From positions 3,289,656-3,353,655 of the forward strand of contig OZ242011.1 of the NCBI GenBank assembly GCA_965204755.1: a stretch of DNA of 64,000 bases, written 5' to 3'. The stretch's first letter is position 1, and each line of letters begins with the position of its first letter. The position numbers and the translations under genes are program-made. The notes under the pieces are model-generated. The model worked only from the letters and a program-made list of their open reading frames with translations, searched no databases and was not told where the DNA came from. This document shows, piece after piece, positions 22,289 through 40,085 of this stretch. This stretch comes from Candidatus Marinacidobacterium sp. (GTDB lineage: Bacteria > Acidobacteriota > Vicinamibacteria > Marinacidobacterales > Marinacidobacteraceae).

Positions 22289-22313
22289 CGCCGCCTCCCC
22301 CGAGGCCGCGGAC

Positions 22314-22580: not shown

Positions 22581-22686
22581 CCGGGTTTCCCCGGTTTTCC
22601 CCGTTTCCCCGGTCAAGCGCCGCCGGCCTCCGTCGGCTTCCGGGACGGACACGAACGCGCGCGCCGAACCGACTGACCGACCCGGG

Positions 22687-23892: not shown

Positions 23893-24085
23893 CGGGAGTC
23901 GGGGATTCGGGGGCGGGAGAGCGACCGCAGCGGCGGCGGCGCAACCGATTCTACCGACGGTTCCCGTCCGCGAAACGCCCTCGCGTTCGGCCGAGGGCGG
24001 CCGGAACGGGAGGGGAAGCGCCGGCGGGGAAACCGCGATCGCCGGGCGCGGGCGGCGGTAAGATGACGGCCGAAAGCGAACGAGT

Positions 24086-24451: not shown

Positions 24452-24793
24452 CCCCCCCGACGCGCGGGCCGCGCGGGCCGCGCGCGTCGCCCACGCCCCG
24501 CCGGGGGTCGGCCATGAGCCGCCCGCGAGCCGGACCGTCCGGCGCCGGCTTCGTTCCCGTCTTCGGGTTCCTCGCGTCCGGGGCCTCGTCAGCGGCGGGC
24601 GTCCTGCCCGGCGCCGGGCCGCAGGCAGGCGCGGAGGACGCCGAGGCGATGGGCGACGCGTTCGCGGGGTTCAACCGGCCGGACCGCCCGGGTTGCGCCG
24701 CGGGAGCGCTCCGGGGCGGCGAGTTCGTCTTCCGGGGCGCCTACGCGAAGGCGACCTCGACCGCGGGATCCCGCTCGACGCCGATTCGGGCCG

Positions 24794-25528: not shown

Positions 25529-25581
25529 GAGTCGGTTCCTTTCGTCGGTGTTCGGGTCGGTGTTTCGCCGCGCGGCGGAGG

Positions 25582-26658
25582 TTACGGGTTCGCCGGCGAG
25601 CGGAAGATCCCCTTCGGCAGGTGCATGCTCACCAGCATGTGGGGAACATCCACCGTCTCCGAGATCTTGAGGTCGCCGGCCAGCGAAGCGAGGACATACG
25701 CCTCTTCGCGGGTCAGCCCGCGCTCCTCGACCAGGTAAGCGATCATGAAACGCGTCGCCTTCTTCGCCGCTTCGTCGATCGTGGTCGCGAACCCGGTGAC
25801 CCCGTAGTACTCGTCGGTTTCGTACTGCGGTTCGGTGATGCCGCGCGGGTTCGGCATCGTCTCGAACTCGAGCACCAGCCGCATCGGCGCCTCGATCGCC
25901 GTGCCCGAAACCTCGCCGTCCCCCTGAACCGCGTGGGCGTCCCCGACGGAGAAGAGCGCGCCCTCCACCTGCACCGGGAAGTACACCGTTGTCCCCGGGC
26001 GGAGGTAACGGTTGTCCATGTTGCCGCCGTTCTCGCGGGGAGGAATGGTCACCAGCATCTCGTCGGTGTCCGGCGCGACGCCCATGACCCCGGCGAACGG
26101 CGCGAGGGGCAGGGTGACCCGGTCGTTGAAGGCGACTTCGGTCGCGCCGGGCGCCATCTCGAAACCCCGGATCCACGGCTCGGTGAACTCGTCCGCGAGG
26201 AAACCGAACCCGGGAAGGATGGTGGCCCAGCCCCAGCCCTCGACTTCCGCTTCGTGGATCGTCACCGCCAGCAGGTCGCCGGGCATCGAGCCTTCGACGA
26301 AGATCGGCCCGGTGAGCGCGTGGATCAACCCGAAGTCCAGGTCGGCCAGGTCTTCCGCGGTGGTCTCCGGCGTGATCTGGTTGTCGGAGGCCTCCTTGGT
26401 GCGGACTTCGACGACCGCTCCGGAGGGGACGGTCAGCACCGGCGGAATCGCCGCGCTCCACCGGTTGTGGGTGTTCTCGCGGCCCAGGCGGAAGTCCGGC
26501 GTCGGAACGGCCGGCGCAGCGCTCTCCGCCGGGGTGGGGGCCTCCGGTTCCGCGCCCGCGCCGCAGCCGAGCGCGACGGCCGCCGCCGAACCGAGGGCGG
26601 CGGCGAAGGCGGCCGCCGGCCGGCGGCGGGAAGGGGCGGATTCGGCGTGGTCGGTCAC
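25582..26658 (-). CDS. acetamidase/formamidase (FmdA_AmdA) family lipoprotein
   Basis: DNRYLRPGTTVYFPVQVEGALFSVGDAHAVQGDGEVSGTAIE; lipobox ALGCGAG. Confidence 0.8.
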   Translation of the reverse strand: MTDHAESAPSRRRPAAAFAAALGSAAAVALGCGAGAEPEAPTPAESAAPAVPTPDFRLGRENTHNRWSAAIPPVLTVPSGAVVEVRTKEASDNQITPETTAEDLADLDFGLIHALTGPIFVEGSMPGDLLAVTIHEAEVEGWGWATILPGFGFLADEFTEPWIRGFEMAPGATEVAFNDRVTLPLAPFAGVMGVAPDTDEMLVTIPPRENGGNMDNRYLRPGTTVYFPVQVEGALFSVGDAHAVQGDGEVSGTAIEAPMRLVLEFETMPNPRGITEPQYETDEYYGVTGFATTIDEAAKKATRFMIAYLVEERGLTREEAYVLASLAGDLKISETVDVPHMLVSMHLPKGIFRSPANP

Positions 26659-26813
26659 GGGGGCAGGGGCTCCTTTCGGGTCTCGGCTGCCGCTCCCCCT
26701 CCCGGGTCCGGCGTCCCTCCACGCCAGCGGATGGAACGCCTTCCCCGGGGCGCGAACGGGCGGGCCCGGCGCGCCTAGACTAACGGCGAGTCGCCCCCGG
26801 CGCCCGTGAGTCG

Positions 26814-27839
26814 ATGCGCGTTTCCCTCCTGCGTGTTCCCGCCTTCCCGCTGTTCGGCGTCCTTGTCGGCGTTCTGGTCGGCGCCCTCGCCGTCCTCGCA
26901 GCGGCCGCCGCCGCCCCGAGCCAGCCGCCCGCCTCCGCCGCCCCGCCGCCGCCCGCCGCGGGCGACCTCGAGCAGGAGCAACGGAAGACCACCGTCGGCG
27001 ACCGGTTCAGTTTCGTGATCCGGGTGCCGAGCGTCACCCTCGATGTCGTCGTCTCCGACGAGCGCGGCCGGTTCGTGACCGGCCTCGGCCCCGCGGACTT
27101 CGTGGTGCTCGAAGACGGCCGACCCCAGGAGATCGAGTTCTTCACCGCCGAACTCACCCCCGTGAGCAGCCTGCTGCTGCTCGACACCTCCGCCTCGGTC
27201 CGCTCCAGCCTCTCCGCCATCCAGACCGCCGCCTACCTGTTCCTCCGCACGATGGCCGACCGGGACCGGGCGCGGGTGGCCACCTTCAGCGAAGGCGTCC
27301 GCTTCGGCCCGCCCTTCCAGACCCGGATCTGGGACCAGGTGGCGATGATCCGCGCCATGCGCCCGTTCGGGAAGACCGCCCTCTACGACGCCATCCTCAC
27401 CGGCCTGCAGGAACTCTCGATCGTCGAGGAGCGGAAGGCGATGGTGCTGCTCTCCGACGGCGAGGACTCCGGCCGGGCGGCGAAGGGCAGCGTCAGCACC
27501 CGGGAACAGGCGCTCGAAGGCGCGCGCCTCTCCGAGGGCGCCATCTACACCGTCGGCTACACCGGCTGGAGCCCGGACGGCGGCGGCCGGCTGAACCGGG
27601 ATTTCCTGGACGCGGTGGCGGAGCAGAGCGGCGGGCGCTCCTTCTACCCGGAGGAGGTGGAGGAACTGCCCCGATACTTCCGGGAGATCCAGCACGAACT
27701 CCACCGGCAGTACCAAATCGCCTACCTCCCCTCCCGCGACCGCAAGGAAGGCGGCTGGCGCACCATCGAAGTCCGGGTCCGCGACCGCCCGGAACTCACC
27801 GCCCGCACCCGCAAGGGCTACTACGCCGCGCCGGGGTAG
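26814..27839 (+). CDS. von Willebrand factor A (VWA) domain protein, secreted
   Basis: LLLDTSASV ... VLLSDGEDSG MIDAS-type motifs with a signal peptide. Confidence 0.75.
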   Translation: MRVSLLRVPAFPLFGVLVGVLVGALAVLAAAAAAPSQPPASAAPPPPAAGDLEQEQRKTTVGDRFSFVIRVPSVTLDVVVSDERGRFVTGLGPADFVVLEDGRPQEIEFFTAELTPVSSLLLLDTSASVRSSLSAIQTAAYLFLRTMADRDRARVATFSEGVRFGPPFQTRIWDQVAMIRAMRPFGKTALYDAILTGLQELSIVEERKAMVLLSDGEDSGRAAKGSVSTREQALEGARLSEGAIYTVGYTGWSPDGGGRLNRDFLDAVAEQSGGRSFYPEEVEELPRYFREIQHELHRQYQIAYLPSRDRKEGGWRTIEVRVRDRPELTARTRKGYYAAPG

Positions 27840-27939
27840 GGACGCCCGCGCGGCGCGGCGGATGGATGTCCGCGCCGCCGCCGCGCCCGGTCTCGACCGC
27901 CCTCTTGCGGCCGGGCGAGGCGCGGGCTAATCTTCCTAC

Positions 27940-28013
27940 CGCACTTCCCCCCCTCGGGATCGTGTCCGGATCGGCAACCGGTTGCCTTTCTGGATACCCC
28001 GGGGGCGATTGCC
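27940..28013 (+). repeat. copy 1 of a diverged ~150-nt tandem element (candidate sRNA); conserved core
   Basis: CGCACTT-C7-TCGGGATCGTGTCCGGATC-GGCAACCGGTTGCC-TTTCTGGATACCCCGGGGGCGATT, preceded by TTGCGG-N17-CTAATC. Confidence 0.5.
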
Positions 28014-28439
28014 TTGAGATGGCGGTTGCGCAATGCGGGTTCCGCGTCATCGGGGGGTGCTTCGCGGTCTCAGCCGGTCGAGGTTGAGCCTCGCTTCGGG
28101 TTTGGCGGCGGGACGAGGGGTTGCGCGTTCGACCCCGGCTCACCCCTTCGGGTCGAGCCTCCCAACCCGAGATGGCCGCTGCGGCGGCCGACCGGCCTCC
28201 GCCCGGTTCTCCGCGCTGGCCCGGCGGAGCCGCCCGAACACGCGGTGCGCGCCGGCGGCCGCCGGCGAGCCCCCGCGGGCTTGATGTCCGGGGAGGCTCT
28301 GGATAGCATCCTCGCTCGCACTAACCCCCCCGGGGATTTCGTCTTGGGCGGCATTCGTCGTTCGTGGCGCCCCCGGGGCATTCGCGTTAAACGGGGCGCC
28401 TGCGCGTCCCGCTTCCCTGAACCCCCGCTAGTATTCCGA

Positions 28440-28510
28440 CCGCACTTAAGCCTCCCGGGATCGTGTCCAGATCCGGCAACCGGTGGCCGCTCCGGGCGCC
28501 CCGGGAGTGA
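28440..28510 (+). repeat. copy 2 of the tandem element (more diverged)
   Basis: CGCACTTAAGCCTCCCGGGATCGTGTCCAGATCCGGCAACCGGTGGCC... preceded by TAGTAT. Confidence 0.45.
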
Positions 28511-28728
28511 TCCTTCTCGTCGGGAGGTGGCCGCCGAGCGATGAGGCTCGGCGAGTCGAGCGGGTTCTGAGCGGAGTCAGGCGTTCCGGCGTTCGGCGTC
28601 GCCTCGCTCCGGCCGTCTCCGACCGTCGCTGCTCCGAGCGGTCGTACCGGTGCCCCCGCCTGCGGGGCGCGTCCGGCCCTCGGGTTCTTCCCGGTGTCGG
28701 GGCGCCAACTGGACTGGGCCCACCACCG

Positions 28729-28760
28729 TCTTGACATCGCGGAGGGTGCCGTCTACTATT
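28729..28760 (+). promoter_or_regulatory. sigma70-like promoter TTGACA-N17-TACTAT driving repeat copy 3
   Basis: Consensus -35 and near-consensus -10 with a 17-nt spacer, read directly from the sequence. Predicted TSS lands at the start of the conserved core. Confidence 0.45.
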
Positions 28761-28764
28761 CCGG

Positions 28765-28838
28765 TTGCACTTACCCCCCCCGGGATCGTGTCCTGATCGG
28801 CAACCGGTTGCCTTTCTGGATACCCCGGGGGCGATTCT
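28765..28838 (+). repeat. copy 3 of the tandem element, with a near-consensus promoter immediately upstream
   Basis: CACTTAC8GGGATCGTGTCCTGATCGGCAACCGGTTGCCTTTCTGGATACCCCGGGGGCGATT. The downstream ~80 nt are also conserved with copy 1. Confidence 0.5.
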
Positions 28839-29076
28839 CTTAACGGGGAGAGGGCGGCTGTCGGGCAAGCGGGTTCGGCGTCGTCGGGGGTGTTCTGAGC
28901 AGGCTCAGCCGGTCGGCGGCTGGGCGGCGCTGCGGATGTGGCGGTTGGGCGAGCACTTGCGAGTTCGTCCTTGGCTCGACCGGTCGGCCGGGCCGCGGAT
29001 GTGACCTCGCGGGCCGCGTCGCGCGTTCGTCTCCTCCGCTGTCTCTCATCCTGTCGCGGATTCGCGCGGAGGGCTC

Positions 29077-29829
29077 GTGTACGAGACGGACCGGCATGGG
29101 GCGCGAGATGCCGCCCCGGATGACGAAGTGGATGATCGGTCCACTCGCCGCAACCGGGTCGGCGGTGTCGCCAGCGAAGTGTCGAACGCGTCCCTTCCGC
29201 CGCTGCCGCTTCAGCGAGCGGCCGTGTTCATCGATGGAAGCAACTGGTACTACGGACTCAGAGGAATCGGGGTTCGCAGCGGCCATCTCCATTATTCGGA
29301 AGTGGCTCGCAAACTCGCCTGCGGCCGGAATGTGTGCGCTGTCCGATACTATGTCGGGAAAGTCACTACGCCTATCGCGACGGCCAAGGCGCAAGACGAC
29401 TTCTTGGCGGCGCTGCGCGAGCAGGGAGTGCGTGTCTCTTTGGGCCGGATGCAGCGCAATCCCATGAGCCGGCGGGCCGCGGATGACCGGAGTCGGCTGG
29501 CTCGCGCCTTCGCGGATCGCGACCATGAGGTTCCGCCCGACCTGATGCGAACGATCGACGCGTTCTGTCGCTCGCGGCCGCCCGAATACCGGGAGAAGCA
29601 GGTGGATACACGGATCGCGGTGGATCTCGTGGACCTGGCGCACCGAGACCGGTACGATGTGGCTTATCTACTCTCCGCAGACGCCGACTTCCTTCCGGCA
29701 GTCCAGGTAGCGCGTCGTCTCGGTAAGGGAGTGTTCGCTGTCGCTCCATCCGGAGGGGACGAACTCAAGGAGGCAGCGACCGGTTTCATAAAGGTCTCGG
29801 CAGACTGGTTCGAGGGCCTGTACGCCTGA
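29077..29829 (+). CDS. NYN-domain (LabA-like/DUF88) PIN-fold ribonuclease
   Basis: AAVFIDGSNWYY ... VDTRIAVDLVDLA ... LLSADADFLPAV motifs. Lower GC. Three possible GTG starts (29077, 29128, 29179). Confidence 0.7.
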   Translation: MYETDRHGARDAAPDDEVDDRSTRRNRVGGVASEVSNASLPPLPLQRAAVFIDGSNWYYGLRGIGVRSGHLHYSEVARKLACGRNVCAVRYYVGKVTTPIATAKAQDDFLAALREQGVRVSLGRMQRNPMSRRAADDRSRLARAFADRDHEVPPDLMRTIDAFCRSRPPEYREKQVDTRIAVDLVDLAHRDRYDVAYLLSADADFLPAVQVARRLGKGVFAVAPSGGDELKEAATGFIKVSADWFEGLYA

Positions 29830-30081
29830 GTAGATCGCGGTTCTCGATGACTCATCGAGACGGCGCCGAGGTCGCGGTCGTCGGCAGGCGACGGATCGCA
29901 GACATAGGCCCGCGCTTAGCTCCGGGTGGCTCCCGTTCTCGCTGCGGCCGCGGAGGCGGGTGGATGCGTACGGGTCTCGGTATCGGAGGCGGATGAGCGC
30001 GTCCGGGCGGGGTGGTCGGATCTGTAGGCGGCAGGGCATACGATCTACCGGCGGCGGCGCATGCGGGGGGAGTTCGGGGTG

Positions 30082-31032
30082 ATGGATGCCCGGCGGGTGG
30101 TTCGGCGGTTGGTTCTCACCGGGGCGGCCGAGGAGGTCGTGGACCCGGGAGGCGGGTTCGCGGTGGCGGGGCGGGCCGGGGACACCGAGATCGCGGTGGC
30201 CGGGGGGCTGCCGCGGACGGCGGCGGCGCGGGCGCGGGGGCTCCGGGCCGCGTGGAGGCGGCGGGTGGGGAACACGCCGCGGACGCTCGTCCTGCTCGCG
30301 GATGATCTCGGTGGGGCTGCGTCCGTCCCGCGGGTGCTCGTCGCCGGGCCGGCGGAGGCCGACGCGGGGCCGTACTCGGTTCCGGCGGAAGCGCTGCTCG
30401 CCGCGGTGGAGGAGTACGCCGAGCGGCCCGACGGGGTGGGGCGGATCCATGCGCTCTCGCGGCAGTTGGAGCGGCTCGCCGGCATCTGCGGCGCGCGGGC
30501 GCGGGCGCCCGAATCCGAAGACTCGTTGGAGCGGCTGCGCGGGACGGAGTGGTGGGAGGGCGCGAGGGAGCGGACGGCCGCGATCCGGCCGGGCGACGGC
30601 TGGCGGGAGATCCTCGGCGCGCTCGGTTACCGGATCGAGCGGCGTCCGGTCGGGTACGCGCTGCGGAGCGGCGGCGGCGCGGTGGCCGCGGTCGTGATTC
30701 CCCGCCGCGACTCGGCCGAGTTCGACGCTTGGGACGACGGCCGTCCTCCCGAAGCGCGGCTCGCGGAACTGGCTCGCGCCGAGGGGGCGGGTCGCGGGAT
30801 GTTCGCCGCCGACGACCGGCTGCGCCGGTTCCGGTTCGACGCGCCGGGCAGCGACGGCGATTGCGGGTGGATCGAACTCGACGCGACCGCGCTCGGCGAG
30901 GAGAATCGACCGTTCCTCGCCCTGCTCGCCGCGGACCCGCTCGAGGTCGCGACCGCTGACGGGCGTTCGGTCGAGCCCGGCGCGCTCGGCCTCGCGACGC
31001 GGGAAGTCGCGGCGTCGCCGGTTTCGGCGTGA
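30082..31032 (+). CDS. standalone paralog of the N-terminal domain of the downstream methyltransferase (function unknown)
   Basis: 316 aa, roughly 45% identical over its full length to residues 1-300 of the 31066..34989 product. Shared blocks: MDA.RVV, RVGN.P..L.LLAD, GPYSVPA, DWWEGA, RPPE.RLA.L, RLR.FRFDA, DWIELDA..L.EE.RPFLAL. Confidence 0.7.
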   Translation: MDARRVVRRLVLTGAAEEVVDPGGGFAVAGRAGDTEIAVAGGLPRTAAARARGLRAAWRRRVGNTPRTLVLLADDLGGAASVPRVLVAGPAEADAGPYSVPAEALLAAVEEYAERPDGVGRIHALSRQLERLAGICGARARAPESEDSLERLRGTEWWEGARERTAAIRPGDGWREILGALGYRIERRPVGYALRSGGGAVAAVVIPRRDSAEFDAWDDGRPPEARLAELARAEGAGRGMFAADDRLRRFRFDAPGSDGDCGWIELDATALGEENRPFLALLAADPLEVATADGRSVEPGALGLATREVAASPVSA

Positions 31033-31065
31033 CGCGCCAGGCCGGAGGACACGGAGTTTCCGACG

Positions 31066-34000
31066 ATGGATGCTGAGCGGGTCGTCAGTACGCTGATCGG
31101 GGACGGGATCGCCGAGGAGGCGAAGCCGCAGGGGGAGTTCGTGCTGTCCGCGCGGATCGGCCGGACGGAGGTCAGCGTTGCCGGATCGCTCTCCGCGGCG
31201 TCGGCGGGCGCGAAGTTGCGGAGCCGGTGGAAGCAGCGGGTCGGGAACAGGCCGCTGAAACTGCTCCTGCTCGCGGATGTGTCGGGCGGCGACGACCGCG
31301 TCGTGGTCGTCGGCCCGTCGAAGGCCGACCAGGGGCCGTATTCCGTCCCGGCCACGGGGCTCTTGGAGAAACTCCGGGCGTTCGCCGATCGACCGGACAA
31401 GGGGGCGCGGCTGCGCTGGCTCACCCGCGAGTTGCAGCGGCTGGGTCTTTCCGGCATTCCCGGAGTTCTGGTGCGGGGTCTGCTGACCGAGCACACGCTG
31501 GAACGCTGGCGGGAGCGCGACTGGTGGGAGGGCGCGAAGCGGACGACCGCCGCCGTCGGGTCGGGAGACACTTGGCGGGACCTCTTCGGCAAACTCGGCT
31601 ACGAGTTGGAACAACAGCCGGAGGGCTACTTTCTGCGGGCCGGGGCGGCGCCGGTCGCGGCGGCGATCGCGTTCAGCGAGTCGGACCAGTTCGACCGCTT
31701 CGACGAAAACAACCGCCCGCCCGAGGGACGGCTCGCCGACCTGTGCGCGTCCGCGAACCTGCGCTACGGGATACTCGCGGCCCGCGGGAGGTTGCGCCTC
31801 TTCCGGTTCGATGCGCTGGACGGGAGCGGCGCCTCCGACTGGATCGAACTCGACGCCGCCGAACTCCGGGAAGAGGATCGGCCGTTCCTCGCCCTCTTCG
31901 CCTCCGAGTCGCTGGTTCCTGACGGTCGCTTCGATGCGGTGCTGAGCGACTCGCGCCGATACGGGGTGGAACTCTGGAAGCGGCTGGACAACCGCATCCG
32001 GGACCGCGCGCTCCCGGTGCTTGCCGAGGAGATGGAGGTCTGGGCGAAGGCAACCGGACTCGATCTGTCGGACCCGGCAGTCCGCAAGGACCTGGAACAG
32101 GCCTCCCTGACGCTGGCGTTCCGGCTGTTGTTCGTTCTCTACGCCGAGAGCGCCGGGTATCTGCCGATGAGCAACGCCGAGTACGAGGGTGCCAGTCTCA
32201 CGAGACTCGTACGGGAAGCGAGGCGGACGAGGGATCGGCTCGACGACAAGTCCACGGCGCTGTGGCTCCGGTTCGTGGTGCTGGTGCAGGCCATGCGCGG
32301 CGGCAACTCTGCCTGGAAGGTGCCGGCCTACAACGGAGCCCTGTTCTCCTCGGACGCTTTCCTCGGGGCGGAGACCCTGGAGCGCCTGTCGCTTCGGGAT
32401 CCCGGGTTCGGCAGCGTCCTGACACTGCTCGGTTGGGACGAGAAGCACGATTGCGGCGTGGACTACTCCACCATCGAGATCGGCCATTTGGGACACATCT
32501 ACGAGTCCCTGCTCACTCGGCAACTGACGCTGGCGCAGCGGGACCTGGTGTACGACGCGAAGAAGGACCGGTACCGCCCGCCGAAATTCAGCGAAGCCAG
32601 GGAGCCCGTCGTTTCCGCCGGGTCGCTGCTCTGGCAAACCCATCTCGGCGGAAGGAAGGCCGGGGGCGTGTACTACACCCCGTCCCCGCTGGTGCGGCAC
32701 CTCGTTGAGCGGGCGGTCGCGCCGGCGTTCGAGCGGCACCTCGACCAAGTGCGGAAGACGGCGGAGACCGACCCGGAGAGCGCCGCCGACCAGTTGCTCG
32801 ATTTCGCCGTGCTCGACCCGGCGTGCGGGAGCGCCCACTTCCTCGTGGAAGTCTTGGATCGTCTCGCCGACTTGACGGCTCGCTTCCTCGGAAACCAGCC
32901 GCTCCCGGCGATCGCGGCGCGCATGGAGACTCTGCGCGCCGCCGCCGGAAGCGACAGCGGAATCCGGGACATGACGCTACTGCGCCGTCTTCTGCTGAAG
33001 CACTGCATCTACGGCGTGGATGTGAGTCCGATGGGCGTCGAGATCGCCACCCTGTCGCTTTGGTTGGCCGCGTTCGTGCCCGGTCTCTCGCTGTCCTACC
33101 TCGGGCGGAATGTCATTCGCGGAAACTCGCTGCTCGGAGTCGCCGATCGGGAAACCGTGGTGAAGCCGCACGCGTTCGAGAGCGATGAACTCCGGGAAAG
33201 TCTGAAGAATGCAGCGGAGGCGGCCGCCGAGTTGGCTGACAATCCGGACCGGACTCCCGAGGAGTATGACCAGAGTTCGGCGGCGGACCATGCCGCCCAA
33301 ACGTTCGCGGCGGGTGCGAAGCGACTCTTCGATCTGTGGACTGCCGAGGCGGAGGTTTCGGACTGCCGGAGGTATCTTGGGGGTCGGGGCAAAGCGATTC
33401 TCGACGACGATCTCGACGATCGTGGTCGGGAGCTTGTACCAGCGGCCGCCGACTACGCCCGGCGATGGGATGTCCTTCACTGGCCGGTCGCCTTCCCCCA
33501 TGTCTTCGCGCGGGAGCGGCCGGGATTCGACGCTGTTGTCGGCAATCCTCCGTGGGAAGAGGTCACTGTCGAGGAACTCGACATCTATGTGATGGTGAGT
33601 CCCGGACTGAACACGCTTCCGGAGGATCAGCGGCTCCTGGCGGTCGCCGAACTCGACGAACAGGATCCGGCGCTGCGGTCGCGCGTTCTTCGGGAGAAGG
33701 GCCGGGCGAGGACTCAGAGGCGGGGACTCGGTGTCGGAGAATACGAAGGCTCCCCCGGCGATCCAGACCTCTACAAGTACTTCTGCCAGCGCTACCGGAA
33801 ACTGCTGCGGGCCGACGGGGCGTTCGGTGTCGTCCTGCCGAGGACGGCTTTCAGCGCCAAGGGGTCGGCGAAGTTCCGCGAGTGGCTCTACGGTCAGATC
33901 ACGGTAGATCGGGTCGATTTCTTGGTGAACACGAAGCAGTGGGCCTTCGACAGCACGCCGAAGTACACGATCGCCCTGTTGGCGGCACGGAACCGGAGGT

Positions 34001-34989
34001 CGCCACCGAGTCACCGGGCGGAGTTCGCGGGCACGGCTGATTCGCCCGAGGCCTGGAGGAGGCAAGTGTCGCAAGATGGCGTCGGTCTTGCGGCAGGGTG
34101 CTTCGGCCCCGAATGGGAGACGCCCCTCGTTCGTTCGCAGGACGAAGCGGATCTGCTTGAACGAGTTCGTCGCGGTTCGCGATTCCCGCTGGGGTCGGGA
34201 AGTCGGTGGTGGTGCTTTCCCGTGGCCGAACTTCATGAAACGAACGACAGACCCCTTTGGCTGGCGCAGACCTCCGGTCTTCCGCTCTGGAAGGGTGCGA
34301 GTTTCGGACCGTACGAGCCAAGAGGGACGGACGGCCGTCATTTCCCGCAGGAGGAGGAGTTGCTCCGCCGCAAACTCCACAAGCGCTCGCCGGGCAGCGG
34401 CTCACTGCTTGGACGAAAGTCCAAAACAGCACGCCAAGCCGCGGTGCGGAAGGAGGTGAGACGCGCCCGCGTCGCCTTTCACGATGTAGCCCGTGCGACG
34501 GACCCGCGCACCGTAGTCGCCTGCCTGATCCCCCCTACAGTTCTCCTGACCAACACGGCGCCCTATCTCGCGTTCCTTCACGGTGCGGAGAGGGAGCAGG
34601 CAGCCTGCCTGGGTGTCCTGAACAGTCTTCCGTTCGATTGGCAGGCCCGGCGGTTCGTCGAACTCCATGTGAACTTTTTCATCCTTGAGGGATTGATCGT
34701 TCCGGACATGGAGGAGAGCGACTTCGAGGTCGTTGCCGGGGCGTCGGCGCGGCTTTCCGCCGTGGACGACCGTTTCGCGGACTTTGCGAAGGCTACCGGG
34801 GTCAAGTGCGGTCCCGTCGAGGAGGATGAACGGAGCGAATTGCGAGCGGAGATCGATGCCCGCGTCGCCCGCGCCTGGAAACTCGACGAGAACGACCTCG
34901 ACCTGATGTTCGCCGATTTCAGCGAGTCGGCGGTGTCGGCGGACTACCGGGAAGCCGTGCGAATCCGTCTGCGGGCGTTGAACGCCTGA
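31066..34989 (+). CDS. PglX/Eco57I-like N6-adenine DNA methyltransferase (1307 aa) with extra N-terminal domain
   Basis: Helical region typical of PglX and type IIG enzymes (LLFVLYAESAGYLP...YNGALF...IGHLGHIYESLL). Motif I LDPACGSAHFL and motif IV VVGNPPW, followed by a long C-terminal target-recognition-like region. Confidence 0.8.
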   Translation: MDAERVVSTLIGDGIAEEAKPQGEFVLSARIGRTEVSVAGSLSAASAGAKLRSRWKQRVGNRPLKLLLLADVSGGDDRVVVVGPSKADQGPYSVPATGLLEKLRAFADRPDKGARLRWLTRELQRLGLSGIPGVLVRGLLTEHTLERWRERDWWEGAKRTTAAVGSGDTWRDLFGKLGYELEQQPEGYFLRAGAAPVAAAIAFSESDQFDRFDENNRPPEGRLADLCASANLRYGILAARGRLRLFRFDALDGSGASDWIELDAAELREEDRPFLALFASESLVPDGRFDAVLSDSRRYGVELWKRLDNRIRDRALPVLAEEMEVWAKATGLDLSDPAVRKDLEQASLTLAFRLLFVLYAESAGYLPMSNAEYEGASLTRLVREARRTRDRLDDKSTALWLRFVVLVQAMRGGNSAWKVPAYNGALFSSDAFLGAETLERLSLRDPGFGSVLTLLGWDEKHDCGVDYSTIEIGHLGHIYESLLTRQLTLAQRDLVYDAKKDRYRPPKFSEAREPVVSAGSLLWQTHLGGRKAGGVYYTPSPLVRHLVERAVAPAFERHLDQVRKTAETDPESAADQLLDFAVLDPACGSAHFLVEVLDRLADLTARFLGNQPLPAIAARMETLRAAAGSDSGIRDMTLLRRLLLKHCIYGVDVSPMGVEIATLSLWLAAFVPGLSLSYLGRNVIRGNSLLGVADRETVVKPHAFESDELRESLKNAAEAAAELADNPDRTPEEYDQSSAADHAAQTFAAGAKRLFDLWTAEAEVSDCRRYLGGRGKAILDDDLDDRGRELVPAAADYARRWDVLHWPVAFPHVFARERPGFDAVVGNPPWEEVTVEELDIYVMVSPGLNTLPEDQRLLAVAELDEQDPALRSRVLREKGRARTQRRGLGVGEYEGSPGDPDLYKYFCQRYRKLLRADGAFGVVLPRTAFSAKGSAKFREWLYGQITVDRVDFLVNTKQWAFDSTPKYTIALLAARNRRSPPSHRAEFAGTADSPEAWRRQVSQDGVGLAAGCFGPEWETPLVRSQDEADLLERVRRGSRFPLGSGSRWWCFPVAELHETNDRPLWLAQTSGLPLWKGASFGPYEPRGTDGRHFPQEEELLRRKLHKRSPGSGSLLGRKSKTARQAAVRKEVRRARVAFHDVARATDPRTVVACLIPPTVLLTNTAPYLAFLHGAEREQAACLGVLNSLPFDWQARRFVELHVNFFILEGLIVPDMEESDFEVVAGASARLSAVDDRFADFAKATGVKCGPVEEDERSELRAEIDARVARAWKLDENDLDLMFADFSESAVSADYREAVRIRLRALNA

Positions 34990-35002
34990 TCGTCGTCGCG
35001 CG

Positions 35003-38000
35003 GTGAGTCGGCGTCCGCTTCCGCCGCCCCCCGCGGCCGTGTCGGTGCGTCCGACCCTGCTCGACAACCTCGAATTCGGGACCCACCGAGTCGGACTCGG
35101 CGCTCTCGCCTCCGACGATCCGAAGGACGCTCCGGTGTCCGTCGCCACCGGGTATGTGAATCTCGGGGGGCTCGCGGCGCTCGCGCAGGTCACGGAGACG
35201 CCGGCACGGCCGGTGCGGCTCCTGATCGGGGTCGCGCCTCCGCCCGGCGGCGGAGGAGCGCGGGCTTTGGTCAGGAAGTTCTTCGACGAGGCGCTTCAGG
35301 AGGTCCGCCGCGACCGGAACTTCGGGCGCTTTCCGCCGAGCCGGGCGAGGAGGAGTATCGGCCCGGTGGCCGAGTGGCTGAAGCGGCCCGAGGTCGAAGT
35401 CCGGCGGTACCAGGGAGCGTTCCTCCACGGGAAGGCGTACTTGTTCGGCGACGCCGGCAACCCGCGGGCGGCGCTCGTGTCCTCGGCGAACCTGACCGCC
35501 GCCGGGATGGAGAAGAACCTGGAACTCGGCTTGGTCGAGTACGGCCCGGACACCGTGGCCAAGGCCATCCGCTGGTTCGACCGCCTGTGGAAGTCCGACC
35601 AGGCCCGGGACTTCAAGGAGACGCTGGAGAAGTTGCTGGGCGCGGACCCGCTCCTCGACGCGCTGGAAGATCCGCGGGCGATCTACCTCCGGATCCTGCT
35701 CGAGTACTTCGGGGACGAGTTGGAGAAGGATCCGCCGCGGCCGCAGGCGGTCACCCTGGCCGACTTCCAGTGGGACGGGTTCCGGCGGGCGCTCCGGATC
35801 CTGGACAAGTGCGGCGGCGTGATCTACGCGGACGGCGTCGGCACCGGCAAGACGGAGATCGGGCTGGCGCTGCTGGAGCGGTACGCGGTCGGGGAAGGCA
35901 AACACGCGCTGGTGGTGGCGCCGGCGCAACTGGTGAAGACCTGGCAGGACCGGATCGACGAGGGAAACCTGCCGGGCCGGGTCGTTTCCTTCCACCAGTT
36001 GGCCGACGACCGGCGACTGAACCCGGAGGGGCGCGGCCGACACCTCCCCGCCGACAAGGACACCTACCGGCTGATCGTCGTGGACGAAGCGCACGCCTTC
36101 CGCAATCCGGACACCGGTTGGCACCGGGCGCTCTCCCGGCTGCTCGGCGGGAAACCCAAGCACGCGGTCTTCCTCACGGCCACGCCGATCAACAACGGCC
36201 TGCCGGACCTCTTCCACCTGGTGATGGCCTTCGCCCGCCACGACGCGGCGTTCGCCGAGCACGGGATCCGCTCGCTGCGGGCGCTGTTCCGGTCGGCGGG
36301 GGCGTTCAGCCGGGACGGGGAGAACCTGGACGCGGACCGCCTGTTCCCGCTCGCCGACCTGGTGAGCGTCCGGCGCGACCGGGCGTTCATCGAGAAGCAC
36401 TACCCGGACGCCAAGTTCCCGGACGGGAGGCCGCTGCGCTTCCCGAAGCCTCGACTCGAGACGGCGCGCTACGCGATAGACGAGGTATGGCCCGGGCTGG
36501 TCGCCGAGATCACTGACGCCGTGAACGAACTGACCCTCGCCCGCTACCGCCCCGAGCACTACGCGGTCGGTGAGGCGAGGGAAGAGGACCGCAACGATAC
36601 GGGGATCACCGGCCTGCTGCGCTCGGCGATCCTCAAGCGGTTCGAGTCCTGCCACGAGTCCTGCCGCCTGACCGTGGAGCGCATGGAGAAGGCGCACGAG
36701 GCGTTCCTCGCGGCCTGGGATGCCGGGTTCGTTCCCGGCTCCGAGGCGCTGCGGGAAATCGTGGAGGCGGACCTCGACGAGACGGCGGCGGCCGCGTGGC
36801 TCGGCGACGAGATCGAAGACGGACGGAGCCGACCGGTCGCGGACTTCGACGCCCTGCTTCGGCAACAGGTGGCGGACGACCTGGAGCGCCTGCGGAGGTT
36901 CCACCGGCGCCTGGAAGAGACCCGGCAGGGCGACGATCCGAAACTCCGGCTGCTGGTCCGGCTGATCGAGGAGTCGCCGTCGGAAAAGGTCGTCGTCTTC
37001 TCCGCGTTCGCCGATACGGTGCGCTATCTCGACGAAAAACTCCCGGAGGTCGTGGACGGACGGCGCCGCGCAGTCGTGATCGGCGAGGAGACCGCGCCCG
37101 ACGAGCGGATGCGCCGCCTCGAGAGTTTCGCCCCGAAGAGCGTCGTCGGCGAGGATCACGAACTCCCGGACGAAGTGCAGGAAGTGGATCTCCTGCTCAG
37201 CAACGATGTCCTCTCGGAAGGGCAGAACCTGCAGCAGGCGGGAGCGGTCGTCAGTTACGACTTCCCGTGGAACCCGCAGCGGGTCGTCCAGCGCTACGGG
37301 CGGGTCATCCGGCTCAAGAGTCCGCACGACGAGGTGTATCTCACGACCATGCTGCCGGCGCCGGGAGACCTCGAACTCCTGCTGAAACTCGAGGCGGCCA
37401 TCCGGCGCAAACTGACCGCGGCGCGGCTCTACGGCATGGATGTGGAGGTGGTCGAAGGCGGGGCGCCGGAAGCGGAGTTGATGTCCTTCGCGGAGCGGCT
37501 CGCCGCCCACGACCCGACCCTGCTCCGCGAATCCGTCGGATCCGGCATCGGGGCGGCGTTCAGCGGGGAATCGCTGCGCGCGGACTTCCATCGCGCCCTC
37601 ATGGAAGGCGAACTGCGGAAACTGCGCAACCTGCCTTGGGGCGTGGGCGCCGCGTTCCGCCTGCCGGCGCCGGGCCGGTCCGGAGCGGCGACGGCAGCCC
37701 CCGGCGAATCGTGGGCCCGGACGCCGGGAGTCTTCTTCGCCTGCCGGACGAAGCGGGACGACCGCTATTGGCGTTTCGTACCGCTCGAGGGTTCGGGGAC
37801 CGGGCCGGAACCGGAGGCGCTCCACCTGCGGCGGATCGCGCCGCCGCGAGGAGTGTCCGGTCTGACCTCCCTGCCGGAGGAGGCGGACCTGGAACGGGCT
37901 TGGGAAACCGCCGCGGAGTCCATCGTGAAGGAGCACAACGAACTCGCCGAGGCGAGTTTGGAGGAGGCGTCGGTGGGGCCGCGGCAGGCGTGGGCGCTCG

Positions 38001-38284
38001 GCGTGCTCGACGACCCCGACCACGGCCTCTCCGACGAGGAAGCCGACCATGCTTCGGAGGCGCTCCGCGTGGGCCGCAGCCAGTCCATCCGCCGCGAGTT
38101 GGGCCGGATCGAGAAGGAACTCGAGGACAAGGCCATCTCCCTCTCCGAGGCCGCCGGCCGCATCGTGGCCCTCGTGAAGTCGGAGGGCCTCCGCCCGGTG
38201 GAGCCCCCCAAACCCCTCGAACCCATCGAAGGCGAACAAGACTTGGGCGTCGTCTGCTGGATGGCCCTCCTTCCTTCGGCGTAG
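35003..38284 (+). CDS. PLD-family nuclease fused to SNF2-family helicase (1093 aa)
   Basis: N-terminal HKD motif FLHGKAYLF...SSANLTAAGMEKNLELG. Helicase motifs DGVGTGKT, VVDEAHAFRN, LLSNDVLSEGQNLQ, VVQRYGRVIR. GTG start 14 nt after the methyltransferase stop. Confidence 0.8.
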   Translation: MSRRPLPPPPAAVSVRPTLLDNLEFGTHRVGLGALASDDPKDAPVSVATGYVNLGGLAALAQVTETPARPVRLLIGVAPPPGGGGARALVRKFFDEALQEVRRDRNFGRFPPSRARRSIGPVAEWLKRPEVEVRRYQGAFLHGKAYLFGDAGNPRAALVSSANLTAAGMEKNLELGLVEYGPDTVAKAIRWFDRLWKSDQARDFKETLEKLLGADPLLDALEDPRAIYLRILLEYFGDELEKDPPRPQAVTLADFQWDGFRRALRILDKCGGVIYADGVGTGKTEIGLALLERYAVGEGKHALVVAPAQLVKTWQDRIDEGNLPGRVVSFHQLADDRRLNPEGRGRHLPADKDTYRLIVVDEAHAFRNPDTGWHRALSRLLGGKPKHAVFLTATPINNGLPDLFHLVMAFARHDAAFAEHGIRSLRALFRSAGAFSRDGENLDADRLFPLADLVSVRRDRAFIEKHYPDAKFPDGRPLRFPKPRLETARYAIDEVWPGLVAEITDAVNELTLARYRPEHYAVGEAREEDRNDTGITGLLRSAILKRFESCHESCRLTVERMEKAHEAFLAAWDAGFVPGSEALREIVEADLDETAAAAWLGDEIEDGRSRPVADFDALLRQQVADDLERLRRFHRRLEETRQGDDPKLRLLVRLIEESPSEKVVVFSAFADTVRYLDEKLPEVVDGRRRAVVIGEETAPDERMRRLESFAPKSVVGEDHELPDEVQEVDLLLSNDVLSEGQNLQQAGAVVSYDFPWNPQRVVQRYGRVIRLKSPHDEVYLTTMLPAPGDLELLLKLEAAIRRKLTAARLYGMDVEVVEGGAPEAELMSFAERLAAHDPTLLRESVGSGIGAAFSGESLRADFHRALMEGELRKLRNLPWGVGAAFRLPAPGRSGAATAAPGESWARTPGVFFACRTKRDDRYWRFVPLEGSGTGPEPEALHLRRIAPPRGVSGLTSLPEEADLERAWETAAESIVKEHNELAEASLEEASVGPRQAWALGVLDDPDHGLSDEEADHASEALRVGRSQSIRRELGRIEKELEDKAISLSEAAGRIVALVKSEGLRPVEPPKPLEPIEGEQDLGVVCWMALLPSA

Positions 38285-38407
38285 CAGGGGCGGTTCGCTC
38301 CCTTCCGGGCAGAACGGAGGAACGCGCGGCGGGCCCGGCTGACGGTCGCGACTGCCGGGAAGCCGCGGGGCCTGCTCGGTATGGAGAGGCCGGCTAGACT
38401 GGTTCCC

Positions 38408-38830
38408 ATGCGCCCGGAAATCGGTTCGGGGCCGTTCCGACCCGGAACCGGCCGCCCCCCGCCGTATCTCGCCGGGCGGGAGGAAGAGCAGGACCTCTTC
38501 CTGATGCTGCTCGCCGACTTGAAGCCGTTTTCGACCGGCAGCGGGACGACTACTACGCCGACCGCCACGACGAACTGGAAACTGCGGCTGCTGCGCCCGG
38601 CGCGAGAGGTCGCGGAGGCATTCGAGTCGCAACCACTCCTCTCCGGCGAGGCACTGGAGGCCGCCATCCGGCGAGGTTTCGGCGAGGACGCCGGCGACGA
38701 CCAAGTGGACGCGACGGCGCAGCAGTTCCGCCATCTCGGCTACATCTGGCGGGCCGGAACCCGTCGGCCGTGGGAACCGGGCATTCCCAGCCTGATGGAC
38801 TACATCCTCCGGGAAGTCCCCGCGCCGTAA
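38408..38830 (+). pseudogene. internally deleted, frameshifted duplicate of the downstream AAA ATPase gene
   Basis: The first ~40 codons match the ATPase N-terminus (MRPEIGSGPFRPGTGRPPPYLAGREEEQDLF vs VRSEIGGGPFQPGSGVLPPHLAGREREQDLF). The last ~80 codons match its C-terminus almost exactly (LRLLRPAREVAEAFESQ...PGIPSLMDYILREVP). The intervening ~850 nt are missing. A linker runs in a shifted frame and a 2-nt deletion restores it. Confidence 0.55.
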
Positions 38831-38943
38831 GCCGGCGAGCCGCCTCCGGAATCTCTGCGGTGCGGGAAGCGCTCCACGACCCCCGAGAACCACGAGGGAT
38901 TCGCCGCCGCTCGGCGCCGGGACTTCCGGCTAAACTGGTTCTC

Positions 38944-40065
38944 GTGCGCTCTGAAATCGGTGGGGGGCCGTTCCAGCCCGGTTCCGGCGTACTCCCGCCG
39001 CACCTCGCCGGGCGGGAGCGGGAGCAGGACCTCTTCCGGACGCTGCTCGCCCGACTCGACCGCGGCGAGGCGCCGCCCGGAGAAGTCATCCTCTACGGGC
39101 CGCGCGGCAACGGCAAGACGGCGCTCCTCGCGTGGGTCAGCGAGTTTGCGAGCGAGTCCACCGGCGTGGATGTCGAGGAACGCACGCCGTCGGAGTTCGA
39201 TTCCCCGGCCGGACTGGCCGAGTTGTTGTTGCCGAAGTCCTGGTGGAAGACCGTCGGCCCCGAGGAGGTCGGCGTTCGGGGGATCACTTGGCGCCCGGGC
39301 CGGCGATCGGCAGCCCCGACCCCCGCCGAAGTCCTCGCTCTTCGGGCCGGGAGGAAACCGTTGGTCGTGCTTCTCGACGAAGCGCACACTCTCGACCCCG
39401 AAGTCGGCCGCGCTCTCTTGAACGCGGCGCAGAAGGTCCGGCGCTCGGCGCCGTTTCTCCTGGTGTTGGCGGGAACTCCGAACCTTCGCGACCACTTGGC
39501 GTCCATGGGCGCCTCTTTCTGGAACCGCGGCCGGAAGTTGCGGATCGGACGCCTGGACGAGAGCGCCGCGGCGGAGGCGATACGGGAGCCGCTGGCGGCC
39601 GAAGACATCACCATCGCGGACGATGCGTTGGAGCACTTGGTTCGCGACAGCCACGGGTATCCGTTCTTCGTCCAACTCTGGGGCGAAGCGGTGTGGGCTC
39701 GCGCCGTCGAGACCTCACGGCAACAGGTCGTCTCCGAGGATGTGCGCGCCTGCCAAACCGTTTTCGACGAGCAGCGGGACGACTACTACGCCGACCGTCA
39801 CGACGAATTGGAAGAACTGCGGCTGCTGCGCCCGGCGCGGGCGGTCGCGGAGACCTTCGAGTCGCGTCCCGCCCTCTCCGGCGGCGAACTGGAGGCCGCC
39901 ATCCGGCGAGGTTTCGGCGAGGACGCCGGCGATGACGAAGTGAACGCGGCGGCGCAGCAGTTCCGCCATCTCGGCTACATCTGGCGGGCCGGAACCCGTC
40001 GGCTGTGGGAACCGGGCATTCCCAGCCTGATGGACTACATCCTCCGGGAGGTCCCCCCGCCATAG
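38944..40065 (+). CDS. AAA+ ATPase (AAA_16/ORC-Cdc6-like P-loop NTPase)
   Basis: ILYGPRGNGKTALL Walker A, VVLLDEAHTL Walker B. GTG start preceded by a duplicated upstream region. Confidence 0.7.
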   Translation: MRSEIGGGPFQPGSGVLPPHLAGREREQDLFRTLLARLDRGEAPPGEVILYGPRGNGKTALLAWVSEFASESTGVDVEERTPSEFDSPAGLAELLLPKSWWKTVGPEEVGVRGITWRPGRRSAAPTPAEVLALRAGRKPLVVLLDEAHTLDPEVGRALLNAAQKVRRSAPFLLVLAGTPNLRDHLASMGASFWNRGRKLRIGRLDESAAAEAIREPLAAEDITIADDALEHLVRDSHGYPFFVQLWGEAVWARAVETSRQQVVSEDVRACQTVFDEQRDDYYADRHDELEELRLLRPARAVAETFESRPALSGGELEAAIRRGFGEDAGDDEVNAAAQQFRHLGYIWRAGTRRLWEPGIPSLMDYILREVPPP

Positions 40066-40085
40066 AATTCCGGCGGGAGGCGGCG

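Follow-up and report, generated by a model that had tools for sequence, protein, structure and literature searches.

A free-standing paralog of a methyltransferase N-terminal module ahead of a methyltransferase and PLD-SNF2 gene pair

Described systems and how the locus compares

Type IIG/IIL enzymes (BpuSI, MmeI, DrdV and the Eco57I family) combine gamma-class N6-adenine motifs in a chain of more than 900 amino acids with a C-terminal recognition region and an N-terminal PD-(D/E)XK fold. The same arrangement was found in a 1307-aa methyltransferase encoded in the 64,000-nucleotide stretch of DNA analyzed here (the window), where it is preceded by a 316-aa paralog of its own N-terminal module (N-module). 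However, the catalytic D/E/K residues have been lost across the methyltransferase family of the window, and an extra extension of ~137 residues is present. In addition, this family is not autonomous: of the 33 loci in which the N-module is fused and at least 4 kb of sequence follows, 32 have a PLD-SNF2 gene behind the methyltransferase gene. A free-standing copy of the enzyme's own N-terminal domain is not known for any type IIG enzyme.

In gene architecture, the locus resembles Type III systems (Mod and Res), in which a methyltransferase and recognition subunit and an SF2 motor and nuclease subunit are encoded by adjacent, co-oriented genes. The two differ in that a PLD/HKD nuclease is located N-terminally on a Swi2/Snf2 motor here, whereas Res has a C-terminal PD-(D/E)XK domain, and in that the methyltransferase of the window is derived from type IIG. 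Class 1 DISARM (DrmD SNF2, DrmMI, DrmA, DrmB and DrmC PLD) has similar parts, as the methyltransferase matched DrmMI (1e-65), the helicase DrmD (3e-32) and the PLD part DrmC (8e-8). On the other hand, every score fell far short of its NCBIfam cut-off (for DrmD, NF038317, 111.9 bits against 610), the DrmMI match was weaker than that to the IIG profile (1e-127), PLD and SNF2 are fused in one protein here, and neither DrmA nor DrmB (DUF1998) was found among the scanned neighbors (Pfam, PADLOC and NCBIfam).

In MANTIS/Gao_RL, an SF2 ATPase with a fused PLD nuclease serves as the effector, and its restriction depends on the methyltransferase complex (bioRxiv 10.64898/2026.09.23.753747). This system (MtsA AAA+, MtsB, MtsC methyltransferase and MtsD PLD-SF2) shares a PLD-SF2 effector with our locus, and the clade of the window also has an ORC/Cdc6-like AAA+ protein and a small extra protein. 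However, the AAA_16 gene is specific to this clade rather than a core gene, and MANTIS has another gene order and another family of methyltransferase. No MANTIS markers, namely DUF499 (MtsA) and DUF3780/3870 (MtsB), were found; the ATPase gave only AAA_16, AAA_22 and AAA. Membership in DISARM, MANTIS or BREX-related systems was rejected on the basis of core genes missing among the scanned neighbors and, for DISARM, of scores under the cut-off.

Two further comparisons concern the free copy. The heterodimeric type IIS enzymes R.BspD6I, BtsI and BsrDI have small subunits that are catalytically active and needed for second-strand cleavage, whereas the paralog and the fused module both lack the catalytic residues, and the family can do without the free copy. 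As with the silent copies of phase-variable hsdS/mod systems, a partial paralog adjoins a restriction-modification gene; unlike in those systems, it is the N-module and not a recognition domain that has been copied, in direct orientation and with 65% identity, with no recombinase gene among the neighbors scanned (Pfam, PADLOC and NCBIfam) and no conversion tracts.

The methyltransferase, its N-terminal module and the PLD-SNF2 partner

The features of the locus are listed in Table 1. As judged from profile matches and motifs, the 1307-aa protein is an N6-adenine methyltransferase. It matched Pfam Eco57I (3e-18), MmeI_Mtase and N6_Mtase as well as PADLOC REase_MTase_IIG (1.2e-127 over residues 216-1288), and it contains DPACGSAHF at residues ~584-592 and NPPW at residues 827-830; DPACGSAHF and VVGNPPW were invariant in the family alignment. 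The nearly constant presence of PLD-SNF2 behind module-bearing methyltransferases suggests a Type III-like restriction system made up of two genes, in which the PLD-SNF2 protein is presumed to be the restriction subunit and the obligate partner of N-module methyltransferases. Most of the stand-alone relatives with an active nuclease motif had no PLD-SNF2 gene, and no further conserved neighbor could be found across 44 loci. A methyltransferase with an inactivated cleavage domain together with PLD-SNF2 is a widespread, uncharacterized two-gene system. We propose that a type IIG-derived methyltransferase has given up its own cleavage domain and would work in a Type III-like manner with the separately encoded PLD-SNF2 nuclease-translocase, the N-module being the part that goes with this partnership.

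Table 1. Features of the locus, in positions of the window
Feature	Positions	Strand	Remarks
NYN-domain gene	29077..29829	+	Upstream neighbor of the paralog, only in the clade of the window and L004; Pfam NYN on orthologs L001, L003, L086-L088
Paralog RBS (GGAG) and spacer	30069..30081	+	Duplicated along with the coding sequence; upstream context kept in related loci
Paralog core, residues 1-288, complete free-standing N-module	30082..30945	+	HMM match 5.6e-80; 48% identity to methyltransferase residues 1-288
Paralog non-conserved C-terminal tail and stop	30946..31032	+	Tails differ from locus to locus, in step with cassette type
Methyltransferase residues 1-137, N-terminal extension found only in the helicase-associated family	31066..31476	+	
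Methyltransferase residues ~138-290, PD-(D/E)XK nuclease-like fold, catalytic residues lost	31477..31935	+	
Methyltransferase body: helical linker, gamma-class N6-adenine methyltransferase, C-terminal target-recognition region	31936..34989	+	
PLD (HKD) nuclease fused to Swi2/Snf2 helicase	35003..38284	+	Pfam PLDc_2, SNF2-rel_dom, Helicase_C; PADLOC 'HKD+Snf2' 4e-38, DrmD-like; PDB Snf2/Rad54, RapA
ORF149 (149 codons), joining ~47 codons from the 5' end and ~83 from the 3' end of an AAA_16 ATPase gene	38381..38830	+	86% identical (aa) to the 3' end of the AAA_16 gene that follows
AAA_16 (ORC/Cdc6-like) ATPase	38770..40065	+	Pfam AAA_16, AAA_22; weak orc1/cdc6 match; orthologs L001, L086

The N-module consists of two parts, a family-specific extension (residues 1-137) and a PD-(D/E)XK nuclease fold (residues ~138-290) that has lost its catalytic D/E/K. 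The first-pass annotation had regarded the domain as unfamiliar, but its C-terminal half could be identified as a catalytically dead fold that shares homology with the cleavage domain of type IIG. Stand-alone type IIG relatives have a canonical PD...ExK nuclease at the N-terminus, and in profile-profile comparison residues ~138-310 matched this cleavage domain (98.2%, E = 4e-14). Other residues occupy the catalytic positions: those aligned to PD and ExK are GY and AVV.P/AFS in the methyltransferase family and the paralog alike. Residues 1-137 lay outside this match; they are conserved throughout the helicase-associated methyltransferase family and were modeled by AlphaFold2 (AF2) with pLDDT 81-97 (90.5 for the N-module model). 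For the paralog itself, AF2 gave a poor model (pLDDT 56) with a shallow alignment of 12 sequences. Foldseek comparison with the PDB gave weak matches only, to Hjc and splicing endonuclease. The paralog had no Pfam, NCBIfam or PADLOC match, and an Rfam scan of 27000-31200 gave none either. Homologs were gathered by exhaustive HMMER search and related loci were found with full-length alignment; word-index searches with the methyltransferase N-terminus or with a 20-sequence domain alignment returned almost no homologs, as low-complexity Ala/Arg/Gly words saturated the candidate list.

The NYN gene, found in 6 of 44 related loci, is probably accessory or independent and outside the core system. 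The AAA_16 gene, whose start is probably near 38917-38944, was a neighbor only in the clade of the window and not in other family loci. ORF149 lies where the cassette exchange described below has its right breakpoint (~38522) and is a scar left by deletion; in its place, L086 has two full AAA_16 genes.

Origin and setting of the free-standing copy

The paralog (30082-31029) and the methyltransferase (31066-34986) were compared by BLASTP with composition-adjusted scoring, which gave 144 identities in 298 positions (48%; 63% positives; E = 5e-70) between methyltransferase residues 1-288 and paralog residues 1-295. All the other segment matches were noise (E > 1). A single strong composition-adjusted match with nothing but noise beside it indicates homology, as previously noted from the sequence, and similarity driven by GC content was rejected on this basis. 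An alignment over the whole length had also been claimed, which was a slight overstatement: residues 1-295 align, but the terminal ~25-30 residues do not, nor are these conserved in orthologs of the paralog. At the DNA level, the identity was 64.8% over 843 aligned bases. A direct repeat (30069-30101 and 31053-31085, spacing 984 nt) starts 13 nt 5' of both ATG codons and includes GGAG; the presence of this repeat ahead of both ATGs favors 30082 over 30061 as the start codon of the paralog. The open reading frame was intact in the window and in six related loci, as the first-pass annotation had stated for the window. The gene is an old, still-conserved copy of the initial ~290 residues of the methyltransferase.

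The free copy was found only in the window, L001/2, L003 and L086-88, and only 12 close homologs of the free form were present among 5.8e9 proteins. All 33 species-representative genome loci, which lie outside the clade of the window, had the fused copy only, and we therefore rejected the free copy as a general component of the system. In the tree, the paralog clade was sister to the N-modules of type-A cassettes and L004. We suggest a single origin of the free copy in the ancestor of this narrow clade, either through tandem duplication of ~1 kb from the start of the methyltransferase gene, RBS included, or as the 5' remnant of a displaced methyltransferase allele. Its identity and origin as a truncated methyltransferase paralog can be stated with considerable, if not complete, confidence.

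Two cassette types (A and B) lie behind the paralog, with N-modules 45% and helicases 63% identical. Between them, only the first 50 residues of the helicase were as divergent as the N-module, and no other helicase segment was. The occurrence of the paralog ahead of two such divergent types argues against a tightly co-evolved specific interface. Comparison of the window with L086 revealed flanks that were 94-97% identical up to 30943, a methyltransferase-helicase cassette that was only 70% identical, and 96.7% identity again from 38522; the left breakpoint (~30943) thus coincides with the end of the paralog core and the start of its tail. Between L003 and L087, identity was 67% for NYN, 92% for the paralog and 69% for the cassette, and the paralog tree was discordant with cassette type. 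The conserved paralog core is a fixed left boundary for the exchange of the methyltransferase-helicase cassette between strains.

Recombination within a genome is a different matter. The first-pass annotation had offered the duplicate as a possible substrate for domain swapping, which would make it a silent cassette for intragenomic exchange or phase variation, as in hsdS/mod shufflons. A partial paralog directly beside the full gene, in a locus that recombines between strains, is what such a reservoir would look like. However, at the low DNA identity of the two copies the longest identical run was 17 nt and no high-identity tracts were present, both copies point the same way, and a search for inverted repeats gave no significant pairing of the paralog with the methyltransferase. 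Identity within genomes was not above that between genomes, and thus there was no concerted evolution. Moreover, the duplicated part is not the specificity-determining region. Gene conversion and a shufflon were rejected on these grounds, and we consider a reservoir for recombination extremely improbable.

Constraint on the free copy and its possible functions

A retained function had been proposed for the paralog from its open frame. Since alternative frames are nearly stop-free at 72% GC (the other two frames of the paralog core contain one stop each), the open frame alone is weak evidence, but retention under selection was supported by other means. The dN/dS ratio of the paralog core was 0.37-0.65, with a bootstrap 95% upper bound of at most 1.00 in 15 of 15 pairs and with the constraint spread evenly over 285 codons, whereas the tail, which serves as an internal control, gave ~1.2 (window vs L001). 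Three indels, each a multiple of 3, were observed against 236 variable columns in six loci, and 11 of 11 clusters of full-length paralog proteins were intact over the core. There was no evidence of diversifying selection on the paralog. It should be noted that the ratio was about twice that of the fused domain (0.19-0.30). The paralog keeps 33 of the 55 family-conserved positions, and GLLTxH, G221 and C227, which were invariant in 34 of 34 fused domains, have been lost and are variable in it; with this loss, the paralog cannot perform all that the fused module does. Taken as a whole, these patterns make it somewhat probable that the paralog has been retained as a functional protein.

The same data bear on the possibility that the gene is a non-functional relic, a 5' end left behind when a methyltransferase gene was duplicated or displaced, which remains open since stops are rare at 72% GC and which decays slowly. 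N-module-only ORFs arise readily and repeatedly elsewhere as deletion scars, and comparable remnants are common in the family: an N-module fused to the last 60 helicase residues, alone in a 761-kb contig (P0023/L092); an N-module ORF with the helicase directly behind (P0018/L089); N-modules joined to the methyltransferase C-terminus (P0087 and P0091); and, in L084/L085, where the cassette is gone, a paralog reduced to a decayed 204-aa fragment (P0012/L084). ORF149 is a scar of like kind in the window itself. The doubled dN/dS, the loss of invariant motifs, the unconstrained tail, the narrow clade and the almost stop-free alternative frames would all suit a relic. However, a relic would not be expected to show dN/dS below 1 in every pair while its own tail is at ~1, nor so few indels, all of them in frame, nor an intact core in every cluster. 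Furthermore, the RBS has been retained and translational coupling is seen in type-B loci, the 92% identity of the core between L003 and L087 against 67-69% for its neighbors is unexpected for junk in a fluid island, and the gene is still open after ~50% divergence from its parent. Thus, we regard a relic as unlikely, although it deserves serious consideration.

The junction with the methyltransferase gene could instead suggest an upstream leader ORF, whose translation would supply the methyltransferase with ribosomes or a promoter through coupling and whose encoded protein would be irrelevant. Type-A loci have a 33-nt gap with its own GGAG between the two genes, and in type-B loci (L086 and L087) the paralog stop and the start codon of the methyltransferase overlap (TGATG); nothing resembling a terminator separates the two genes, and the paralog is kept whichever cassette is behind it. 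Nevertheless, a leader needs an open frame only, and neither the even amino-acid constraint nor the family-conserved residues that have been kept would be explained. The methyltransferase also has its own RBS, and 33 other genomes manage without such a leader. We consider the leader explanation improbable.

With regard to activity of the protein itself, a sensor or specificity module acting in trans had been among the earlier suggestions. The latter is not supported: the target-recognition region is C-terminal in the methyltransferase and not in the N-module. As an independent sensor or specificity subunit, the free module would sense DNA or a phage cue and direct the methyltransferase or helicase. 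Inactive restriction-endonuclease folds have been proposed as nucleic-acid sensors in BREX-type helicases (PMC12839542), a precedent that the retained fold of the free module would fit. On the other hand, the absence of the free copy from all the species-representative loci outside the clade shows that the system can work without it, the paralog has lost the very residues that are best conserved in the fused module, and there is no sign of diversifying selection; such a subunit is very improbable.

Our preferred explanation for the whole, which we hold tentatively (probability roughly 0.45), is that the gene is a relic of duplication or replacement whose product now serves as a small accessory protein acting in trans. 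Moderate purifying selection would since have maintained the free copy, translated as a protein in its own right. It might act in trans, as a non-catalytic subunit or as a competitor, at the surface by which the fused N-module may engage its PLD-SNF2 partner or pair with another N-module, and restriction would be damped or gated in this way. Any specific trans-acting mechanism of this sort is doubtful, and a role as decoy or regulator, raised in the first-pass annotation, is possible. A more speculative version, to which we assign a low probability, is that the free N-module evolved as a 'safety catch', a resident, allele-independent competitor that titrates PLD-SNF2 from the methyltransferase or caps N-module pairing; in a variant of it, the free module could be a decoy for phage proteins targeting the N-module. 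If the safety catch were true, restriction would be held down until methylation of the genome had caught up with a newly acquired specificity, and the lineage could swap whole cassettes (types A and B, 70% nucleotide identity) without self-killing.

The restriction of the free copy to one clade and the recurrence of N-module-only ORFs elsewhere as deletion scars lower its significance. Current tools file the two-gene system as 'type IIG'. A functional free module would offer a separable genetic handle on how a dead-nuclease methyltransferase recruits or restrains a PLD-SNF2 motor, a step that is poorly understood in methylation-based defense (DISARM, BREX relatives and MANTIS), and it would be an example of how defense loci tolerate allele replacement. 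If the free copy is a relic, it would provide a clean case of cassette turnover in defense islands leaving long-lived ORF scars in high-GC genomes.

The duplicated N-terminal module and its neighbourhood

The first-pass annotation had claimed that the N-terminal module of the 1307-aa methyltransferase (N-module, residues 1 to ~290) is also encoded as a free copy immediately upstream, and this could be confirmed: residues 1-295 of the 316-aa product (the paralog) aligned with methyltransferase residues 1-288 at 48% identity over 298 columns (BLASTP, composition-adjusted, E 5e-70). The alignment had been described as covering the whole paralog, which was correct for these 295 residues and incorrect for the final ~25-30, which did not align to the methyltransferase; BLASTP found no further alignable segment between the two products. 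A direct DNA repeat with a spacing of 984 nt begins 13 nt 5' of both ATGs and contains GGAG. Thus, the paralog start was placed at 30082, and the duplicated unit brought its own ribosome-binding site. In two related loci, L086 and L087, the paralog stop overlaps the methyltransferase ATG (TGATG). Five co-oriented genes were supported by frame-specific GC3 (see table). The remaining two frames of the paralog core (aligned residues ~1-288) contain one stop each in this GC-rich DNA (~72% G+C in the window), and therefore openness alone is weak evidence.

Features of the locus and the surrounding island
Feature	Position	Orientation	Remark
~85-nt unit, copy 1	27926-28010		intergenic (27896-28850), 5' of NYN gene
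~85-nt unit, copy 2	28427-28511		same intergenic stretch
TTGACA-17 nt-TACTAT	28731-28759		before copy 3
~85-nt unit, copy 3	28752-28836		same intergenic stretch
NYN gene	29077-29829	co-oriented	frame-specific GC3
Direct repeat, first copy	30069-30101
Paralog, 316 aa	30082-31032	co-oriented	frame-specific GC3
Direct repeat, second copy	31053-31085
Methyltransferase, 1307 aa	31066-34989	co-oriented	frame-specific GC3
PLD-SNF2 gene, 1093 aa	35003-38284	co-oriented	frame-specific GC3
ORF149	38381-38830		5' ~47 and 3' ~83 codons of AAA_16 ATPase gene, joined
AAA_16 ATPase gene	38770-40065	co-oriented	frame-specific GC3
AAA_21/AAA_15 ABC-type ATPase gene	40005-41501
HicB antitoxin-like gene	41514-41870	opposite strand (-)

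Each ~85-nt copy forms a long hairpin of -36 to -41 kcal/mol (z ~ -2.7 for copies 1 and 3) with a smaller one after it, and the stem of copy 2 is preserved despite changed bases. Copies are also present in L086, and Rfam gave no match at E < 0.1; these units may be a small RNA family or repeated regulatory elements. The ABC-type ATPase, which matches the PADLOC candidate HEC-03B (1e-112), and the HicB-like gene after it add to the defence or toxin-antitoxin genes of this island.

Identity of the module and of its system

The methyltransferase matched Eco57I, MmeI_Mtase and N6_Mtase in Pfam and, over residues 216-1288, the PADLOC type IIG profile (1.2e-127); its DPACGSAHF and VVGNPPW motifs are both invariant. 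The following gene encodes a PLD/HKD nuclease fused to a Swi2/Snf2 helicase (PLDc_2, SNF2-rel_dom and Helicase_C in Pfam; 'HKD+Snf2' at 4e-38 and DrmD-like matches in PADLOC; Snf2/Rad54 and RapA in PDB). The last ~13 residues of this PLD-SNF2 protein (DLGVVCWMALLP) are 92% conserved between the two allelic types of the methyltransferase-helicase cassette (63% identity overall) and are kept in the relic fusion proteins P0023 and P0132. This segment may serve as a motif for interaction or localisation.

The shared domain had no match in any family library, and only 137 proteins containing it emerged when 1.84 billion representatives were searched exhaustively with a profile; the full-length ones are methyltransferases of ~1300 aa that carry it N-terminally. 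A family-alignment scan of the genome collection yielded 80 loci, which were sorted into two groups by six-frame HMM and BLAST. In group (a) (~38 loci from Acidobacteriota, Acidimicrobiia, Chloroflexota, Gemmatimonadota and other phyla), the methyltransferase carries a complete N-module, and the PLD-SNF2 gene follows it in 32 of the 33 loci whose downstream sequence spans at least 4 kb. Members of group (b) are more distant (~1350 aa, 26-30% identity), mostly occur without the helicase and have an N-terminal PD...ExK nuclease of textbook form ('IPDhLLF ... vvEsK ... Q..rYL ... WGILTNG..WRLY'). Profile-profile comparison matched module residues ~138-310 with this nuclease domain (98.2% probability, E 4e-14) and placed GY at the PD and AVV.P/AFS at the ExK positions, replacements common to the entire helicase-associated family and the paralog. 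Residues 1-137 form a further alpha/beta extension, which is confined to the helicase-associated family. Homology, fold, loss of catalytic residues and association of the module with PLD-SNF2 are all established.

Among 44 loci, no neighbour other than the PLD-SNF2 gene was conserved, which argues for a two-gene unit. The predicted system is Type III-like, with a type IIG-derived methyltransferase carrying a dead cleavage domain and a PLD-SNF2 nuclease motor. DISARM was rejected because DrmA and DrmB are absent from the neighbours scanned and scores were far under cut-offs; a DUF499-centred BREX-related or MANTIS system was also rejected for this locus.

Origin, constraint and decay of the free copy

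Twelve homologues of the free form were found by word-index search, 11 of them with 300-347 aa and 71-100% identity and one a 204-aa fragment. The six loci recovered (L001/2, L003, L086, L087, L088) share the order NYN, paralog, methyltransferase, PLD-SNF2. No second N-module copy lay within 10 kb in any of the species-representative genome loci. This also holds for L004 (Candidatus Marinacidobacterium, Acidobacteriota), the nearest of them, with 65-67% identity in the methyltransferase. The paralogs grouped as one clade in NJ trees, sister to the N-modules of cassette type A and L004. Identity between paralog and N-module was not higher within than between genomes, and divergence of the paralog from its own methyltransferase (dS ~0.65-0.70 and dN ~0.4 in three genomes) exceeded that of orthologs. 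Thus, the free copy arose in a single old event, within a narrow clade and without concerted evolution, and it is a real, lineage-specific feature. GC3 of the paralog (0.90) resembles that of host genes (0.90-0.96) and lies above that of the methyltransferase (0.81), ORF149 (0.81) and the ATPases (0.80-0.83), a pattern that fits a paralog resident for longer than the present cassette.

The main rival explanation is that the paralog is a long-lived relic, and N-module ORFs are indeed a common by-product of cassette decay. Several metagenomic ORFs of other lineages, recurring as deletion derivatives of this system, join N-modules to other fragments: P0023 (L092 1542-2468, alone in a 761-kb contig) and P0132 to the last 60 helicase residues, P0087 and P0091 to the methyltransferase C-terminus. 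The N-module ORF P0018 (L089 842-1837) is directly followed by the helicase, the methyltransferase body being deleted, and P0025 (L091 8001-9008) by a 973-aa methyltransferase body split off at the N-module boundary, possibly through a frameshift in a 9x assembly. At L084/L085, a syntenic site with a 94% identical right flank (HicB/Fer2/xanthine-dehydrogenase), RadC/ResIII/PIN genes (ResIII being a helicase) replace the cassette, and only an internally deleted 204-aa paralog fragment is present (L084 409-1023, L085 1179-1793; 74% DNA identity). This site is a variable defence island, in which the paralog decays without the cassette.

The intact paralogs were compared over 285 core codons in six loci. 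Pairwise Nei-Gojobori dN/dS was 0.37-0.65, with a bootstrap 95% upper bound of at most 1.00 in all 15 pairs; values were 0.19-0.30 for the fused module within one cassette type and ~1.2 for the paralog tail (window vs L001). Constraint is even along the core, where three indels (15, 3 and 6 nt) occur among 236 variable columns. The paralog keeps 33 of the 55 positions conserved in at least 80% of 34 fused modules, and has lost the GLLTxH motif, G221 and C227, which are invariant in fused modules and variable in the paralog. Codon comparison clearly points to moderate purifying selection on the paralog, and we regard a relic as rather unlikely.

Cassette exchange and possible role of the free copy

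The free copy may act as a decoy or regulator, as had been suggested. It had also been proposed as a specificity module or a domain-swapping substrate, and neither of these two proposals found support. The two copies are 64.8% identical in DNA, their longest stretch of unbroken identity is 17 nt, and high-identity tracts are absent. They are direct repeats without associated inverted repeats; therefore, intragenomic swapping is unlikely, and the alignments speak clearly against gene conversion between them.

Up to the end of the paralog core (20001 to 30943), the window and the near-identical strain L086 are 94-97% identical. Identity drops to ~70% over the methyltransferase and helicase (31310-38523) and is back at 96.7% from 38522. 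Between L003 and L087, identity is 67% for NYN, 92% for the paralog core and 69% for the cassette. The window, L001, L003 and L088 carry cassette type A and L086 and L087 type B (N-modules 45% and helicases 63% identical), and cassette type is discordant with the paralog tree. These patterns argue strongly that the left edge of the swapped cassette is fixed at the paralog core, which is hence a boundary of cassette exchange. The right edge lies inside ORF149, whose 5' and 3' parts are 68% and 86% identical in amino acids to the following full AAA_16 gene; L086 has two complete tandem AAA_16 genes at this position (L086 18387-20743). Since the ORF149 junction (~38522) coincides with the right breakpoint of the exchange, ORF149 is a recombination or deletion scar. 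Two whole-cassette alleles, deeply diverged (~70% nt identity), segregate among genomes with 94-97% identical flanks; within the methyltransferase, divergence between them is greatest in the N-module (40-53% aa identity vs 61-74% for most other parts).

We infer that the N-module may be the platform by which the methyltransferase engages the PLD-SNF2 nuclease motor, by analogy with MANTIS, in which the PLD-SF2 effector depends on a methyltransferase complex (bioRxiv 10.64898/2026.09.23.753747). The free copy would then act in trans at this platform, as a competitor or an extra subunit. If the free module does gate restriction during cassette replacement, the finding would be far more interesting.
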